Shown here: one piece after another, positions 8,559 through 57,249 of the stretch
How the letters are laid out: each line of letters starts with the position of its first letter
How positions within the stretch are numbered: position 1 is the first letter of the stretch
From: Candidatus Aenigmatarchaeota archaeon
GTDB lineage: Archaea; Aenigmatarchaeota; Aenigmatarchaeia; PWEA01; JACQIF01
Length of the DNA stretch: 64,000 nt
Direction of reading: 5' to 3'
NCBI GenBank assembly: GCA_016432325.1
Contig: CP066684.1
Span: 384,001 to 448,000 of the forward strand
The notes under the pieces: model-generated
Told to the model about the DNA's origin: nothing
Databases searched by the model: none
The model's input: the letters and a program-made list of their open reading frames with translations, nothing else
Program-made: the position numbers and the translations under genes

Positions 8559-8941
8559 GTCTCGTCAGCAAAGTCCTTGAGCGTCCGCTCACCAAGAAAC
8601 TTCTTCCTCGCGCCTTCCATCGTTCCGGATACGCCCAGAGAGTGGGGTATCACGCGGACGCCGCCTATGCTCGTTATCAGGGCCAGCGCGACGCGCACGT
8701 TCTCTACCTGCACATGGCCACAACGCACGAGGCCGCGCTGCCGCTTCTCGTCCCAGGCGTCCTTGACGAACCATACGTTCGTGCGCGCTGTCCCGAGCTC
8801 GCCCAGAAGAGTCAAAAGCGCATTCCAGAAGGCGTCCACTATCGCATCAAACCTGAGAGGCTTCTCGCTTATGATTTCAAAAGCCAGGTAGCGCTTCTTC
8901 TCGCGCAGGGTAGGAGGAAGCGTTTTCGGTTTGTCCGCCAT
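8555..8941 (-). CDS. rnp2: RNase P protein component 2 (Pop5/Rpp14)
   Basis: LPPTLREKKRYLAFEI, GELG, GVSGT. Confidence 0.95.
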   Translation of the reverse strand: MADKPKTLPPTLREKKRYLAFEIISEKPLRFDAIVDAFWNALLTLLGELGTARTNVWFVKDAWDEKRQRGLVRCGHVQVENVRVALALITSIGGVRVIPHSLGVSGTMEGARKKFLGERTLKDFADET

Positions 8942-8995
8942 TTACTGGTCACCTCTAATTCTTCCGAGCTGTAAAATTGAAACCGAAGGTTTCAT
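8942..8995 (-). other. Linker mini-ORF cassette MKPSVSILQLGRIRGDQ between rnp3 and rnp2
   Basis: TAA-t-ATGAAACCTTCGGTTTCAA...GAGGTGACCAGTAA-ATG. Confidence 0.7.
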
Positions 8996-8996
8996 A

Positions 8997-9704
8997 TTAC
9001 TCCTCGACCTCCACGCCCTTGTACAGTATCTTGCCTGCCAGCTTCTTCTTGTTCGCCTGCACGCGCGCCTCGCAGGTGTCGCTCACGGCGCGCATGGACT
9101 CCTCCAGGGTCAGCCCGAGAATCTGCGCCAGGGCCGCGAGTTCACGGGGATCGCGCAACCCCCACGCGTCCTTTGCGCCTGAAGTGACCACGATGGGCGT
9201 GCCGAACTCCTTGCAGAGCATCACGTTGCGTTCCATGTGGTTCAGGACGTGCGTGCGGACGCGCTTGTATGTCGTCAGAAGCTCCCCCATATTCAATTCG
9301 AGCGCAACGCCGTTCTGGGCCGCGCTCTGCGTGACCACGTGGTCTATGCCAGAGTCTACGCGCTTGAACTCGGGATGCGCTATGACGTCGACGCGGCCGT
9401 CTTCGGCCGCGGCCCTGTTTATCGCGTAGTCCCCGCCTGAAACAAGCACGAGCTCTGCGATTTCCCTGTACTTCGCAAGGGCGCGCTTCAGGGTCTTTAT
9501 CGAATCGGCCTGTATTTCCACGGCACCGACAAGCTCGAGGCCGCTTTTCTGCGAGGCGTCGCGCAGACGTTTCCTGAGCTCCCTGAAAGCGTCGAATTTC
9601 TGGTGGTATTCGACGACAGCGAGTCCTGAGAATCCGAGTGTCGCGGCTACCTCGACCGTCTTTTCCAGATCCTGCGCGTGAACGTGCAAGTCATAGAATT
9701 TCAT
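8997..9704 (-). CDS. rnp3: RNase P protein component 3 (Rpp30)
   Basis: MKFYDLHVH, GGDYAINRAA, DSGIDHV, SGAKDAWGLRDPREL; adjacent to Pop5. Confidence 0.93.
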   Translation of the reverse strand: MKFYDLHVHAQDLEKTVEVAATLGFSGLAVVEYHQKFDAFRELRKRLRDASQKSGLELVGAVEIQADSIKTLKRALAKYREIAELVLVSGGDYAINRAAAEDGRVDVIAHPEFKRVDSGIDHVVTQSAAQNGVALELNMGELLTTYKRVRTHVLNHMERNVMLCKEFGTPIVVTSGAKDAWGLRDPRELAALAQILGLTLEESMRAVSDTCEARVQANKKKLAGKILYKGVEVEE

Positions 9705-9923
9705 TCTATGTTTCCCTCACAGAGTTCGTGAACTCATAAATTTGCATACGTGCGGCTACCCCACAGATTGTTAATGTGAAGAGCCTCTTAAATAACCAAA
9801 AATCTGCCGGGAAACCTGTCCGATATCTTTTTATACTCGGATTGCAACGCATATAATTCTCAAACGCTTCGCGCAAGCGAGGAGAAAAAAAGGAAATGTC
9901 AGAAGAAGGCAATTCCACAGCGG

Positions 9924-9978
9924 AAGATTTTCGAACATCCTCGAGTGTTCGAAATACTTCGAACCGCCGGTTCGAAGA
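9924..9978 (+). repeat. Double-hairpin element, intergenic copy
   Basis: AAGATTTTCGAACA-TCCTCGAG-TGTTCGAAATACTTCGAA-CCGCCGG-TTCGAAGA. Confidence 0.85.
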
Positions 9979-10027
9979 GCACTGTAGTTTCATTCTAGAG
10001 CTCGGCATTTATTAAAGGTGAATTCTC

Positions 10028-10621
10028 ATGGTCAAACATCTCAAACTTGCTTCTCGACTCCAAGGTGCGTGGGAAACCGGACTGACCGGAGAAAAAATAT
10101 CCATAGGCTGCCGCGTTCCCAAGGAATTCTTCGTCACGAGCGGCGCGGGAGAGAGCGACATAACGATACACGCGGGCTCTTTCGACGAGGCGATGCGCGA
10201 CGCGGGAATAGAGAACTACAACCTGATGCACTACTCCTCCATAATGCCCGCGGGCGCGGTCGAAGTCGAGCGCCCGGAAGGCGCTGTGCACGGCTCCGTT
10301 CTGGAGACGATAATGGCCGTCTCCAACAGCGAGACAGGCGTGCGCGCCACGGCCGGCGTCGTGATGGGTTGGGTCTACGACAAGCGCACAGGCAAGAAGA
10401 TCGGAGGGCTCGTCGCGGAACACAACAGCCACGAAGACGAGGAGCACGCCGTGCGGATGCTGCGCGCGAGCGTAGAGAACATGTTCAAGAACAGATACGG
10501 CAACGAAGCGGAATTGCGAGACGTGCGCATCGTGACAAAGAGCATTGTGCCTGAAAAGCGCTATGGCACGGCCATGGTAGTCGTCGGTTTCACCAGTTAT
10601 GAAGTGCCTGTCCTGAATTAG
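10028..10621 (+). CDS. pdaD: Pyruvoyl-dependent arginine decarboxylase
   Basis: FVTSGAGES, SFDEAMRDAGIENYNLMHYSSIMP (Ser-Ser autocleavage site). Confidence 0.92.
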   Translation: MVKHLKLASRLQGAWETGLTGEKISIGCRVPKEFFVTSGAGESDITIHAGSFDEAMRDAGIENYNLMHYSSIMPAGAVEVERPEGAVHGSVLETIMAVSNSETGVRATAGVVMGWVYDKRTGKKIGGLVAEHNSHEDEEHAVRMLRASVENMFKNRYGNEAELRDVRIVTKSIVPEKRYGTAMVVVGFTSYEVPVLN

Positions 10622-10899
10622 TACCAGTCGACTTCGGGGCCTTTAACGTGTCTCTCCTGTTCGTGGGGCTGACAAGCCTTCTGGAGCTGGACCAGACTGA
10701 CGTGATGCATGGCCATAGCATAGGAGAACGCATCTATCTGTTTTAGCATCTCGGCAACCCGATATCCCAGATCTTCCATTTCCCCACTGGACACCGATGC
10801 GCGAGGACCATAGATAAACATGACTACGTCGCTAGCCGTAGTGCCTGTTTTGAGATTTTCGAAACCACAGTTTCGAATACTCAGAATCGGCGCATTCAT
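10618..10899 (-). CDS. Hypothetical 93-aa ORF whose N-terminus is element-derived
   Basis: ATGA overlap with the rpl15e stop; no recognisable motif. Confidence 0.4.
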
Positions 10900-10919
10900 C
10901 CATAGTGCCGATTCTGAGA
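10832..10919 (-). repeat. Synonymously recoded duplication of the rpl15e 3' end around a double hairpin
   Basis: TCT CAG AAT CGG CAC TAT GGA TGA vs TCT CAA AAC AGG CAC TAC GGC TAG. Confidence 0.9.
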
Positions 10920-11465
10920 CGGGCGCACTTTCTCCGCGCCTTTGCCGACGCTTCTCATGCCGCGCGACTTCCTTCCCGCAGACGTCAAGCCACGGAATAC
11001 GCGCCCCCTATTGGCTCCGTCAACGACCCACGAGACGTCACGGTCGCTGCGCACCGCCGGATGCGAATAGTCGACGAGAACAATCTCATACCACTCGCTC
11101 TTGCCGTCGCGGCCGACCCAGTATGAATTCAGGACTTCCAGATTGACAAACTTCTTCGCGGCGCGCTCTTCGGCAATCCACTGGTGCGACTTCTTCGGAG
11201 TTGCCCAGCGGCCCATGCTCCTCGGTTTGCGACCGCCCGACCAAGAGGGCTTCTTGCGGCCGCCGACATCGACGCGCACGCGCGCCATGACAAAGCCGGA
11301 CTTCGCCTTGTAGCCCAGCGCACGCGCGCGGTCTATCCGGGTGGGACGTTCGATGCGCGTAACTGTGTTTTCGGAACGCCATTTGATAAGTCTCTGTTTC
11401 CAAAGCTCTCCGAGCGCTTCTTGCGGCTTGTTCCATTTCTCTGCCACATACTTGTAGAATCCCAT
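10896..11465 (-). CDS. rpl15e: 50S ribosomal protein L15e
   Basis: [41 protein letters not shown]; ATG 11465 after SD GAGGTG. Confidence 0.98.
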
Positions 11466-11477
11466 CGTATACACCTC

Positions 11478-11525
11478 TTTTGGTTTGCGACCAATCCTTC
11501 AGGCGTGCACGCCCACATCGGAGGT
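11478..11525 (-). promoter_or_regulatory. Structured 5' leader of rpl15e (candidate r-protein leader)
   Basis: TCCGATGT-GGGCGTGCACGCC-TGAAGGA K-turn-like hairpin plus TTGGT-CGCAA-ACCAA hairpin next to the SD. Confidence 0.5.
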
Positions 11526-11578
11526 TTAGTGTAGTGAAAACCCAAGCTTTATATAGACGGCGGGACGTAGCAAAAACC

Positions 11579-11645
11579 ATGGGAGCCGCATGAAACTGAA
11601 GTTTCAAAGCTCCCATGAAGAATTGGTGATGTCATGGGAGCCGCG
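11579..11645 (+). repeat. Start-duplication hairpin cassette
   Basis: ATGGGAGCCGCA-TGAAACTGAAGTTTCAAA-GCTCCCATGA...GGTGA...ATGGGAGCCGCG, period 55. Confidence 0.88.
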
Positions 11646-11849
11646 CTGAAGTTCGTGTTCGGGCTTGTCTTGCTTCTTGTGGGACTCTACCTGATCGCGC
11701 CGATCGAGATACTCTCCAAACCTGCGCTGTTCGACTGGTACGGACCGTTCGTGGCTTTGGCCAAGGGCGCGATACCTCCTTTCCTCATACTGCTCGGCAC
11801 GCTCATCGTGTGGATTGAAGGCGAAGAGCTGAAGAGCGGGAAGAAGTAA
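11634..11849 (+). CDS. Small 2-TM membrane protein
   Basis: Two hydrophobic helices; WIEGEELK tail. Confidence 0.8.
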   Translation: MGAALKFVFGLVLLLVGLYLIAPIEILSKPALFDWYGPFVALAKGAIPPFLILLGTLIVWIEGEELKSGKK

Positions 11850-11888
11850 GAGGTATAAATCCTTTATTGTCGTATTCTCCGTGTAACC

Positions 11889-13007
11889 ATGATATATGCA
11901 GATTCTGGAGTTGACATCGAACTCGGGGACGACGTGTCGAAGGTTCTTTACGAGGCGGCAAAGCATACATGGAACAACCGCAAGGGCCGTCTTGGAGAAG
12001 TCGTGGAACTTTTCGAAGATTTCTCGGGCCTAAGAGCCGTCAACGTAGGCGGTCTTCCAGCAGACGCGTACATGAGCCTGGGATTCGATGGTGTCGGAAC
12101 CAAGATGGAAATCGGCGAGAGGATATCAAAGCACGATACGGTCGCCTATGACCTGTTCGCGATGGTGTGCGACGACGCCGTCGTGCGCGGTGCCGAGCCA
12201 GTTCTTATCGGCTCCATTCTCGATGTCCGCAGCCTCGGGGAAGAAGACAATTCTTACATGAAGTTTGTCAAGCAGCTCGCCACTGGATACATAGGCGCCG
12301 CCAAGGAGGCCAACGTCGCCGTAGTCAATGGAGAAGTCGCCGAGCTCGGCGCGCGCGTCAGCGGTTACGGGTCTTTCAACTACAACTGGGGAGCCGGCGT
12401 CGCCTGGTTCGCCAGAAGGAACCGAATGTTCACGGGCCGTGAAATAGTGGAAGGCGACTATCTCGTCGGCCTCCGTGAAGAAGGATTCAGGTCCAACGGA
12501 CTGTCGCTCGTAAGGAGGATTATGAAAAAGGCGCACGGCGATGACTGGCACGAGGAGAAGCACAACGGCAAGAATTTGGCCGAACTCGCCCTTCATCCCT
12601 CCCGCATTTACACTGGCGCGGCCGTCGAAATGTTTGGAGGATTTGACTGGAAACCTCGAGCGTCCGTCCACGGAATCGCGCATATAACAGGTGGCGGTGT
12701 CCCTGGCAAACTCGGAAGGGTTCTAAAGCCCAGAGGCTTGGGCGCGAACATAACAGACCCGTTTGAGCCGGCGGACCTAATGCTCCACTGCCAGGAGATT
12801 GGAGATGTAACGGACGCAGAAGCCTACAGAACCTGGAATATGGGACAGGGCATGATAGTCATAACAGACGAACCAGAAGACGTCGAACGTGTTGCCAAGA
12901 AGCGCCGGATAAACGCTAGGCGCATAGGCAGAGTATCCGCACGACCGGGCATACAGATAGCGAGCAAGGGACTAAACGCGAAAAAAGACGGCGTACTCTC
13001 GTTCTGA
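11889..13007 (+). CDS. purM: AIR synthase (PurM) family protein
   Basis: YADSGVDI, DGVGTK, GEVAEL, GFRSNGLSLVR, HITGGG, TWNMGQG. Confidence 0.88.
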   Translation: MIYADSGVDIELGDDVSKVLYEAAKHTWNNRKGRLGEVVELFEDFSGLRAVNVGGLPADAYMSLGFDGVGTKMEIGERISKHDTVAYDLFAMVCDDAVVRGAEPVLIGSILDVRSLGEEDNSYMKFVKQLATGYIGAAKEANVAVVNGEVAELGARVSGYGSFNYNWGAGVAWFARRNRMFTGREIVEGDYLVGLREEGFRSNGLSLVRRIMKKAHGDDWHEEKHNGKNLAELALHPSRIYTGAAVEMFGGFDWKPRASVHGIAHITGGGVPGKLGRVLKPRGLGANITDPFEPADLMLHCQEIGDVTDAEAYRTWNMGQGMIVITDEPEDVERVAKKRRINARRIGRVSARPGIQIASKGLNAKKDGVLSF

Positions 13008-21957: not shown

Positions 21958-22386
21958 TTAAACGTCCAGAACCACGAAAGCCTGCCAGCCTTCGCGCGTT
22001 CGTTCGACACGGAACATGTGGTATGTGATTGCCTTCACGTCCACAGAAAGGTCGTGTCTCTTCGAATCCAGCTTTTCTCCGTAGAGCGTGGCTTTGCATG
22101 CGATTTCGCTTATCTCGTCTATCTTAATCTTGCCGAACAGTAGGCGCTCCGCGTCTTTGAGGAACACGAACTCCTGCAGGAAGTTGAACATCAGGTTCTC
22201 GACGTCAGAACCCTCGACGTCTACGGTCTTCGTGACCTTCGTGTGCACGCTCGCGAGGTTGCGGACCATCGTATTCGTCACGGCCAAACCCGCGGATTCA
22301 AAAAGTTCCTTCAGGTCTTTTCCCGAAGCTTCGAATGCAACGTCGGCGAGCGAGACGTCTTCTACGAAATGATATGACATGGTCAT
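21958..22386 (-). CDS. Archease
   Basis: ADVAFEASG, DVKAITYH, VLDV C-terminus; next to rtcB. Confidence 0.95.
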   Translation of the reverse strand: MTMSYHFVEDVSLADVAFEASGKDLKELFESAGLAVTNTMVRNLASVHTKVTKTVDVEGSDVENLMFNFLQEFVFLKDAERLLFGKIKIDEISEIACKATLYGEKLDSKRHDLSVDVKAITYHMFRVERTREGWQAFVVLDV

Positions 22387-23936
22387 CCCTTCACGTTGCC
22401 CACAGGGATGAGACGCACCACAGGCTTCGAAATGTCTGCCTTTGCCGTGGCGTCGATGACCTCATCGATGTCCTTGTAAGCGAATCCGGCCTCCTCGGCG
22501 AGGCCCGAGTATGACACGGACTTCACGTAGATTCCTTTCTTTATCATCGGATTTATGACCAGTTCTTCCACTTTTCTTCTCTCTATTGCTCGGGCCTTGT
22601 CTCTCGGCATGTCTCTGGTGTTTCCCACAATCTCGCGTATGGCGCGCGTGCGGGACATCGTGCGCCCCGCGCCGTGGGCCGTCGAACCAAACGTCTGTTC
22701 TTCGGCGCCCTTGGTTCCGACAAGCAGGTACGAACCGGTTTCCATGGACCCGCCGATTATAACGGGCTGGCCTATGTCGCGGTACGCTTTCGGAATATTA
22801 GGGTTTCCCGGGCCGAGAGAACGCGTCGCGCCCTTTCGGTGTATCAGAAGCTTCTTTTTCTTGCCGTCGACCTCGTACTCCTCCAGCTTCGCCGTGTTGT
22901 GAGCCACGTCGTATATCTGTCTCATGCCAAGCGCCTCGGCGTCCTTTCCGAAGATTTGAGCGAAGGCCTCGCGAATCCTGTGCGCTATCATCTGGCGGTT
23001 CGCAAAGCTGAAGTTGATGCCGCACTTCATGGCGGCGAAGTAGTCCTGTCCCTCTTTCGACGTGAAAGGCGCGCAAGCCAGTTCGCGGTCAAGAATCTTG
23101 ATGCCGTACTTGCTCTCCATCACGCTCAGGAAGAGCTGCAGGTAGTCCGTAGCCACCTGATGGCCGAAACCGCGCGAACCGCAGTGGAACATCACGACCA
23201 CTTGTCCGGGGAATATTCCGAGTTTCTTCGCGTACTCCTCGTCGAAGATGTTCTCCTTCTTCACGACCTGTATCTCAAGATAGTGGTTGCCGGAGCCGAG
23301 CGTTCCGACCTGACCGAGCCCGCGCTTAACGGCTTTGTCGCTGACACGCGACTCGTCGGCTCCCTCGGCATTGCCTTCCTCCTCTGTGACGGCTAGGTCT
23401 TCCTTCCAGCCGTATCCCTTCTCGACGCACCATTCCGCGCCGCTGCTTATCATCTCCCTGAACTGACCGTGGCTCAGCTTGGCAAACCCCGCCGCGTCGT
23501 CAAAGGCCGCGGAGCCGACTCCCGCAGGCACGCGGTCATAGAGGAGATTCACGAGCTGCTTCAGCTTGGGCTCGACGTCTTTCCATGTCAAGTCCGTCCT
23601 GAGAAGACGCATGCCGCAGTTGATGTCGAATCCTATTCCTCCGGGAGAGATGACGCCGCCGTTTTCAATATCCATCGCGGCGACGCCTCCTATAGGGAAG
23701 CCGTACCCGGAGTGGCCGTCGGGCATGCACATAGCGGCGCGCACAATTCCGGGAAGAGTGGCGACGTTCGTTATCTGATCAAAGACATGGGCGTCCATCT
23801 CACCGAGAAGTTTTTTTGTGGTAAACACCTGCGCAGGCACGCGCATGCCCTGCTTGAAGGACGTGGGCACCTCCCAAATCACATCGCTTATGCGATTGAA
23901 ATCCGGCTTCTTGAACTCCCTGTCGTGGAAAGACAT
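22383..23936 (-). CDS. rtcB: RNA ligase RtcB (start 23936 or 23963)
   Basis: MPDGHSGYGFPIGGV, GFDINCG, GSGNHYLE, HCGSRG, HRKGATR, HGAGR, YKDID. Confidence 0.97.
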   Translation of the reverse strand: MSFHDREFKKPDFNRISDVIWEVPTSFKQGMRVPAQVFTTKKLLGEMDAHVFDQITNVATLPGIVRAAMCMPDGHSGYGFPIGGVAAMDIENGGVISPGGIGFDINCGMRLLRTDLTWKDVEPKLKQLVNLLYDRVPAGVGSAAFDDAAGFAKLSHGQFREMISSGAEWCVEKGYGWKEDLAVTEEEGNAEGADESRVSDKAVKRGLGQVGTLGSGNHYLEIQVVKKENIFDEEYAKKLGIFPGQVVVMFHCGSRGFGHQVATDYLQLFLSVMESKYGIKILDRELACAPFTSKEGQDYFAAMKCGINFSFANRQMIAHRIREAFAQIFGKDAEALGMRQIYDVAHNTAKLEEYEVDGKKKKLLIHRKGATRSLGPGNPNIPKAYRDIGQPVIIGGSMETGSYLLVGTKGAEEQTFGSTAHGAGRTMSRTRAIREIVGNTRDMPRDKARAIERRKVEELVINPMIKKGIYVKSVSYSGLAEEAGFAYKDIDEVIDATAKADISKPVVRLIPVGNVKG

Positions 23937-29089: not shown

Positions 29090-29168
29090 TTGGCAGACAG
29101 AGTAAAAACAGCGGTTTTTAAAGTCCGCCATGCAGAGGTTGGTGAATCATGGCAGACCGAGTAAAAAG
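29090..29168 (+). repeat. Start-duplication hairpin cassette
   Basis: TTGGCAGACAGAGTAAAAA-CAGCG-GTTTTTAAA-GTCCGCCATG...GGTGA..ATGGCAGACCGAGTAAAAA, period 59. Confidence 0.88.
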
Positions 29169-56622: not shown

Positions 56623-57249
56623 TCATGGCCTCCACAGCGTCACGCGCAGAGTGCAGTTGCGCGAATTCTCCGTCATCACGTAGCGGTCTATTGAAATCTG
56701 TTCCTTGGCGCCCGCCGGCTGGGCGCCTACTGTCAGGTTCGTGGACTGGACCGTGCAGTTGGAGCCGCCGCTTGTCAGCAGCTGCACGTAAAGGCTGTTT
56801 GGTCCTGTCGAGAGGTTGCCGCGCAGGTCTTTGGCCGTCATCCGCGTCAGCGCGATGAGCTTGTCATCCGCAAGGCGATGGTCTCCGTATGCCAATCCCA
56901 CGCTCTTGATATTCGTCGAGTTGTACCAGCCGTCGGGCTCTCCTGACGTAAGAACGAGCTGGTCGCTAAGCCCGATGAGCCTGTCCTGCGTTCTCCTGAA
57001 CTCCTCGGAGTCTGCCACGGAATGGGATATGGAAGACTCCGCGTGCAGGACGCCCGCTATCGATATCGTGAATATGACAAGCGCCAACACGACGTCCAGA
57101 GAGACGGCCTGTCCCTTTCCCGACAGAAGGAGGGAAAACTGAAACCGCGTTTCAGATTTTCCTGCCCCAAGGGCGGGAAAATCGTTCGCACGCGGCGAGG
57201 CCGCGGCCCCGCCGTCTTCAGCACGTCTGCACATTCGTACCGTCCGCAT
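56623..57249 (-). CDS. Pilin-like protein with palindrome-expanded leader
   Basis: KG|QAVSLD; TSGEPDGW. Confidence 0.82.
   Translation of the reverse strand: MRTVRMCRRAEDGGAAASPRANDFPALGAGKSETRFQFSLLLSGKGQAVSLDVVLALVIFTISIAGVLHAESSISHSVADSEEFRRTQDRLIGLSDQLVLTSGEPDGWYNSTNIKSVGLAYGDHRLADDKLIALTRMTAKDLRGNLSTGPNSLYVQLLTSGGSNCTVQSTNLTVGAQPAGAKEQISIDRYVMTENSRNCTLRVTLWRP

Follow-up and report, generated by a model that had tools for sequence, protein, structure and literature searches.

We examined the 3' end of the ribosomal protein gene rpl15e in a Candidatus Aenigmatarchaeota genome (G000; 875 kb, a single contig), within a window of 64,000 nt (bases 384001-448000), where the end of the gene is written twice (Table 1). 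On the minus strand, the rpl15e TGA is followed by a 4-nt spacer, a 12-nt antisense arm, 2 nt, a hairpin termed hairpin B, a further 2 nt and then a second copy of the C-terminus. The offset from copy 1 to copy 2 is 64 nt, that is, frame +1, and 40 nt separate the copies. They are identical at 17 of 24 nt, all seven differences are synonymous, and the stop codons are TGA and TAG, respectively. The junction of the unit lies at the foot of stem A, between T and C of the Ser codon (T|C), and the arm pairs with copy 2 at only 9 of 12 positions. All coordinates of the anatomy described in a first-pass annotation of this DNA, namely two SQNRHYG-stop ends 64 nt apart and out of frame, a 12-bp stem and a hairpin, were confirmed. 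The relative L034 has a 3' flank after its last copy similar to that of G000 with its hairpin at 10823-10842, and the last copies of these two genomes look as if they had been long in place.

Table 1. Features of the rpl15e gene end and of two start-type units, in window positions
Feature	Position	Strand	Matches
rpl15e, ribosomal protein eL15, 189 aa, host gene	10896-11465	-	PF00827 homologs, closest named Ca. Aenigmarchaeota
Copy 1, working C-terminus, SQNRHYG-TGA	10896-10919	-	
Copy 2, rear, re-spelled C-terminus, SQNRHYG-TAG	10832-10855	-	
One 64-nt unit: front gene end, spacer, antisense arm, hairpin B	10855-10918	-	Seven homologous 62-65 nt units in five genomes
Antisense arm, 12 nt, pairing with copy 1 at 12/12 positions (stem A) and co-varying with its own front copy	10880-10891	-	
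Hairpin B, 8-bp stem, 4-nt loop; GAAAC-N4-GTTTC palindrome family	10858-10877	not assigned	
6-bp hairpin (ACTACG/CGTAGT) across the 3' half of copy 2	10823-10842	-	
93-aa ORFan frame, start inside copy 1	10618-10899	-	
Start-type unit, 71-aa membrane-protein gene: spare start, hairpin B, antisense arm, live start; GCA vs GCG	11578-11644	+	
Start-type unit between Rpp30 and Pop5: hairpin B, short antisense arm, RBS, start	8938-9003	-	

We attach next to no probability to chance or an assembly artefact as the source of the re-spelled echo. In neutral simulations of seven changes, the peptide was retained in 0 of 100,000 cases, and of the 72 possible single changes of the gene end 15 are silent. 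A downstream echo of at least 8 codons within 200 nt was found for 3 of the 1,048 called genes of G000, and across 5,240 shuffled gene/downstream pairings the maximum echo was 4 codons; neither control reproduces the echo (a simple hexamer model supplied the gene calls for this survey, the survey of three-copy arrays at gene starts and the codon scores). The 88-nt stretch over both copies has a folding z of -4.96, and Rfam covariance models gave no match across 10832-10919 at E up to 5. Misassembly, which the first-pass annotation had named as the finding that would undo its reading, is excluded, since contigs span the site and the layout recurs in four independent assemblies. Single contigs from three groundwater runs cover 9000-12500 with zero differences, and a contig from a fourth covers 10060-11372. 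These four runs may themselves be the source of the G000 genome, which would weaken them against an artefact, but four independently assembled relatives have an identical layout in other letters, and it is their compensatory changes, together with the failed chance controls, that rule out both explanations. The re-spelled, stacked gene ends are thus confirmed as real.

Among relatives the unit is patchily present, in zero to two copies at a fixed junction, with an arm that co-varies with the front copy. Six related rpl15e alleles end in SQNRHYG-stop, at 70-81% protein identity. They carry no added unit in L171/L172, one in G000, in G001 (the only same-genus genome for G000) and in L033, and two in L032 and L034, so that the gene end is single in one allele, double in three and triple in two. 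The L171/L172 allele has one end, with neither arm nor hairpin, and continues directly into Rpp30. The seven rpl15e units are 62-65 nt long, share the T|C start and a terminal AT, and each consists of a spare end, an antisense arm pairing with that end and a GAAAC-N4-GTTTC-type hairpin. All 77 cells of stem A are paired, 10 of them with a change on either side of the pair, a result reached by 0 of 500 shuffles (seven related sequences). With its own front copy the arm forms Watson-Crick pairs in 76 of 77 cases; against the next copy there are 10 true mismatches, all 10 on synonymous positions. Aligning related rpl15e 3' ends, as the first-pass annotation had suggested, thus returned a series of zero, one and two units and 13 end copies, each of them spelled differently.

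Similarity between units does not appear to follow the host tree, which is a weak tree of six alleles. G000 and L032 are sisters in it (support 91/92), but the L032 units are close to those of G001 (1 difference in hairpin B) and of L033 (3 differences) and not to those of G000 (7 and 9). The 28 other order- or class-level relatives with an rpl15e match all end differently, and an echo was found in 0 of the 26 whose gene end was locatable. A 50%-cluster search gave no relative closer than those already compared. Scans for the motif across JGI metagenomes, GTDB genomes and IMG/VR returned only G001 and chance matches outside rpl15e; no viral contig carried the unit, or the motif in an rpl15e context.

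Between rear and front copies, synonymous codons account for 36 differing nt and a single changed codon for 2; that codon is the last Gly of the L033 rear copy, which has become Glu (GAA). All seven rear copies, from five genomes, keep frame, length and stop, with all three stop codons in use, and 1 of their 56 codons is changed. Since pairing alone gives neither silent-only mismatches nor intact stops, the rear copies bear a protein-level signature. The alignments argue that protein-level selection did shape the rear copies, which would either have been in the working position recently or still be translated. The first-pass claim that such selection cannot maintain copy 2 is therefore contradicted as history. 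Between these hosts the gene bodies are near synonymous saturation, with 46-77% of same-residue codons differing.

At a gene for a 97-aa protein of unassigned function, the order of two alleles is swapped between relatives. G001 (L129) has FGGVSSIFG-stop in front and FEGVGGIFG-stop behind, and L181 (3285-3422) has the reverse order, with FEGVGSIFE-stop in front and FGGVSSIFD-stop in the rear, 107 nt later; L180 and L182 are empty, with a single FEG-type end. Over the first 24 nt, the G001 front and the L181 rear show 3 differences, the G001 rear and L180 show 2, and front and rear inside one genome show 8. The arm matches the front allele in both G001 and L181. As allele order is swapped between relatives, the comparison indicates that gene-end copies exchange working and spare positions at the DNA level. 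The unit of L181 also includes a chain of three hairpins. The earlier interpretation is partly supported by these data. Its proposal that one copy was rewritten or imported fits both the swap and the zero, one or two units at the rpl15e junction; its argument against selection does not stand, nor does its ORFan start as a function.

The layout is present at unrelated gene ends, gene starts and tRNA ends, and a near-identical unit occurs at two non-homologous genes. In G000, GAAAC-N4-GTTTC occurs in 32 copies at this spacing vs 1-13 at other spacings, mostly in intergenic DNA, and the strict hairpin-B pattern was seen in just 1 of 60 other genomes of the class. The TFB C-terminus EKKIKEDED-stop (G000 452778-452869, L031, outside the window) has an echo 62 nt on, with 7 silent differences; two other close relatives were readable here, both without this unit, which is missing from L170 and L173-L175. 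A 13-mer identical to the TFB arm of G000 does occur in L173, where it forms the end of convergent trm1, possibly by chance. The histone C-terminus IKLVAKR-stop (G000 653243-653320, minus strand) has an echo 51 nt on with 2 silent differences, missing in G001. The layout also lies behind tRNA CCA 3' ends (G000 ~246600-246830 and 292720-292790, minus strand), in one case as a three-copy CCA-end array.

Over a dozen gene starts have units in reverse orientation; the layout is antisense to the mRNA there, and the few coding differences are again silent. Most of the G000 start units are missing at the orthologous G001 gene; of those in Table 1, the unit at the membrane-protein gene is present in L033 too and missing in G001 and L032, and that between Rpp30 and Pop5 is missing in four relatives. 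Three-copy arrays occur at two gene starts of G001. The starts of proteasome alpha (G000 119131-119196) and prefoldin beta (124374-124439) carry a unit identical at 64 of 66 nt; the two proteins have no BLASTP match to each other and both begin MPEI. A strand-bias count in stem A of start-type units gave 10 G.T vs 6 A.C. More hairpin-B palindromes or full units lie in the window at 373, 4738, 5700, 7304, 29090-29160, 57116-57181 and 59227, at sites that include the positions before L7Ae, near tbp and at the start of a KaiC-like gene. Upstream of rpl15e in L032 (9785-10020) are a TTCGAA-type hairpin chain and a start-type echo (MGFY, two silent differences), so that rpl15e has units at both its ends there. 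In L003 (2150-2320; G007, another family of the order), the start region of Rpp30 is repeated in tandem in exact copies of 68 nt. In L087 (140-330; G001), an identical, not re-spelled, 21-nt C-terminus echo lies 119 nt downstream, adjoining TTCG-type hairpins, and may be a young unit.

We interpret the unit as one of a family of enzyme-less double-hairpin DNA insertion elements in this archaeal lineage, with copies that are recycled through the working position, a reading to which we give a probability of about 0.6. A unit combines three parts, namely a spare copy of the interrupted end, an arm antisense to this copy, and a generic palindrome. It would insert at the foot of its own stem via 1-3 nt of microhomology, placing a working end in front and displacing the previous end rearward, and because the working end is supplied in front, the gene would survive the insertion. 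A unit may be born by fold-back at hairpin B, if the polymerase there copies ~12 nt of its own strand before rejoining the template just past the stop; such a fold-back would write x, reverse x and x again around a palindrome, and its product would be a miniature direct-inverted-direct triplication, comparable to the ODIRA model (PMC10766183). One excised, circularised unit would form a hairpin-capped dumbbell of stem A and hairpin B. Loss would proceed by slippage across the folded unit, and transfer between alleles or strains by recombination; skipping the unit restores an intact protein at every junction from -1 onward in six of the seven rpl15e pairs, TFB and histone. As every copy would spend time in the working position, amino-acid changes would be removed and only re-spellings left, and a unit spelled unlike the resident end should better resist deletion.

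The weak point of recycling is its turnover rate: host genes are near silent saturation yet the rear copies have changed a single codon, so recycling must far outpace point mutation. No 64-nt skip or variant was present in the contigs of the four runs at a depth of 12-120, contigs being prone to drop rare variants. A search of G000 (90% complete) gave no match to a Y1 HUH transposase/RAYT (PF01797) or to a reverse transcriptase (PF00078), and neither of its two tyrosine integrases adjoins any examined unit. In favour of recycling, decayed rear or middle copies do occur, namely the L033 rear copy ending in GAA and a frameshifted middle copy in L170 (5622-5777), where a three-copy array follows a 203-aa gene and the last copy is intact. 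An intact last copy behind a decayed middle copy is unpredicted by plain front insertion and counts against recycling, as does the 3' flank common to the last copies of G000 and L034.

It is possible, though doubtful, that the rear copy is instead still used, through protein-catalysed excision and ligation in some transcripts or a hop by some ribosomes, which would take off from the Ser codon at the stem A foot and land on the one after hairpin B. Both ends would then be under constant protein-level selection, and differing alleles would give two C-termini per cell. This would explain the lack of decay without fast turnover, including the L170 array, and agrees with the tight unit length, the protein-preserving junctions noted above and the EndA and RtcB encoded in G000. 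The take-off codon lies at the stem foot and the landing codon matches it (TCT/TCT in five of seven units, TCT/TCG in two), a match that any repeat would give. Archaeal bulge-helix-bulge (BHB) mRNA introns (cbf5, PMC2738675; HVO_1309 5' UTR, PMC7714728) resemble the unit as small structured mRNA inserts in hosts with EndA and RtcB, but here a BHB forms at no equivalent, protein-preserving junction across cases, and the re-spelled flanking duplication is absent from those introns. Canonical BHB splicing was rejected, because at offsets from -4 to +21 the central and flanking helices never form across the cases. The bypass cassettes of T4 gene 60 and its homologs (bioRxiv 10.1101/2022.08.31.505936) and the yeast mitochondrial byps are likewise mobile inserts of ~50-60 nt, with a take-off codon at the stem foot and a matching landing codon. 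Unlike in T4 gene 60, no stop follows take-off at the unit, where CAG or CAA comes next (79% and 21% of Gln codons, respectively), neither a stop nor a hungry codon; the protein is complete without bypass, and a whole spare C-terminus is carried. Skipping would give an identical protein and hence no reason for a perfectly paired arm, the recurrence of the layout at gene starts, where it is antisense to the mRNA, and behind tRNA CCA ends speaks against continued use, and the order swaps require DNA-level movement regardless. We consider it unlikely that the rear copy is expressed by removing or hopping a 62-65-nt double hairpin without a BHB, in which case one mRNA would have two alternative last exons, the same in L15e and differing in the 97-aa gene, and the excised dumbbell would be the mobile form of the element. 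A frameshift or mini-ORF route into copy 2 was rejected, the open +1 frame of G000 being closed by TGA or shifted in relatives. A diversity-generating retroelement was also discarded: the differences are of all kinds, synonymous and not adenine-specific, and PF00078 gave no match.

A host RNA switch seems to us quite improbable. A terminating ribosome would open stem A, the arm would re-pair with copy 2 and a downstream start would be freed, serving translational coupling or mRNA stability, and copy 2 would be kept by base pairing alone. The arm is predicted to refold onto copy 2 in all five genomes when copy 1 is held unpaired, and copy 2 stops 2-10 nt upstream of a possible start in G000, G001 and L032. 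Pairing, however, explains neither the placement of all 10 mismatches on synonymous positions nor the conservation of His-Tyr-Gly-stop beyond the paired part; the downstream ORFs of relatives are unrelated, and an empty allele exists. RNA switching may be a secondary use of the unit. Highly improbable, in our estimate, is the scar of a larger integrated virus or plasmid that brought a replacement rpl15e end in its attP and later lost its body; prophage e14 brings such a replacement end to E. coli icd and leaves icdC, with 12 nt exchanges in 165 bp (PMC11148124). Elements of this type do leave re-spelled replacement ends, and like the unit they have the replacement end in front, mostly silent differences, the displaced end behind and the gene intact; the integrases of G000 and the layout at tRNA 3' ends would suit such an origin. 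Against it, all seven units are 62-65 nt long with intact, co-varying stems and no body, the many unrelated genes would each need their own element, and the IMG/VR scan gave no viral contig with the motif in an rpl15e context. The unit further departs from the e14/icd type in lacking a linked integrase, in its antisense arm to its own end, tandem stacking and allele order swaps, and in recurring at unrelated genes, gene starts and tRNA ends. An e14-like element is the closest precedent for the re-spelled end.

As regards other known systems, REP/REPIN/BIME palindromes are, like the unit, short and intergenic, present in tens of copies, often beside stops, and able to form tandem hairpin chains (PMC2817692, PMC3116915, PMC3733652). 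Unlike REP/RAYT, the unit comes with no Y1/RAYT transposase that we could find, hairpin B has no visible GTAG/CGTC tag, and codons of the target gene itself make up half of every unit. The yeast ODIRA inverted triplication shares the direct-inverted-direct arrangement, as from template switching at a short inverted repeat (PMC10766183, PMC4689423), and a hairpin-capped intermediate of that kind can be drawn for one unit. The unit differs from it in its 12-nt scale vs kilobases, in having no origin inside, in being archaeal, in its dedicated palindrome at one junction and in copies diverged to synonymous saturation. It fails a defining test of each known family considered. The unit works like an attP-borne replacement end and resembles REP-type palindromes, and it seems to be a previously undescribed type of miniature mobile DNA, able to stack and exchange gene ends while leaving the gene intact. 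A literature search, mainly of work outside subscription journals, found no description of such an element.

The series of zero, one and two units at one junction, the rule that the arm follows its own copy, the silent-only count and the allele swap were each tested directly here. If recycling is true, a gene-less 64-base element maintains itself in a streamlined genome, next to essential genes (at the ends of L15e, TFB and histone), through the spare gene ends that it carries and recycles; it would drive silent-site diversity and preserve C-terminal alleles across lineages. If the rear copy is instead in continued use, the locus would represent a new archaeal route of RNA splicing or ribosome bypass. 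Under recycling, the hairpin common to the unit and to sequences at tRNA genes would also bear on the origin of archaeal introns and small repeats. The rpl15e locus allows a clean test, because the seven silent differences of copy 2 would make a unit-skipping read recognisable.

Downstream of rpl15e, the ORFan ATG (10897-10899) is formed at the GGA|TGA junction in copy 1, from the last Gly base and the first two bases of TGA. Of the six alleles only that of G000 has it, codons 1-26 of the frame score -0.25, far below the 0.12 +/- 0.11 of real small genes, and relatives have unrelated ORFs in this slot. The first-pass suggestion that the insertion creates this start is thus not supported as a function, and the ORFan is not a conserved product of the insertion. 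If real, it more likely has 67 aa, starting from the ATG at 10821; it had no Pfam or Atlas match, which says nothing on novelty or absence. Between rpl15e and Rpp30 (window 10028-10821), G000, L032 and L033 have a small ORF that varies among lineages and a convergent pyruvoyl-dependent arginine decarboxylase; neither occurs in the empty L171 allele. Elsewhere in the window, rtcB (22386-23777, minus strand) has an open frame of 608 codons vs a 426-position model.
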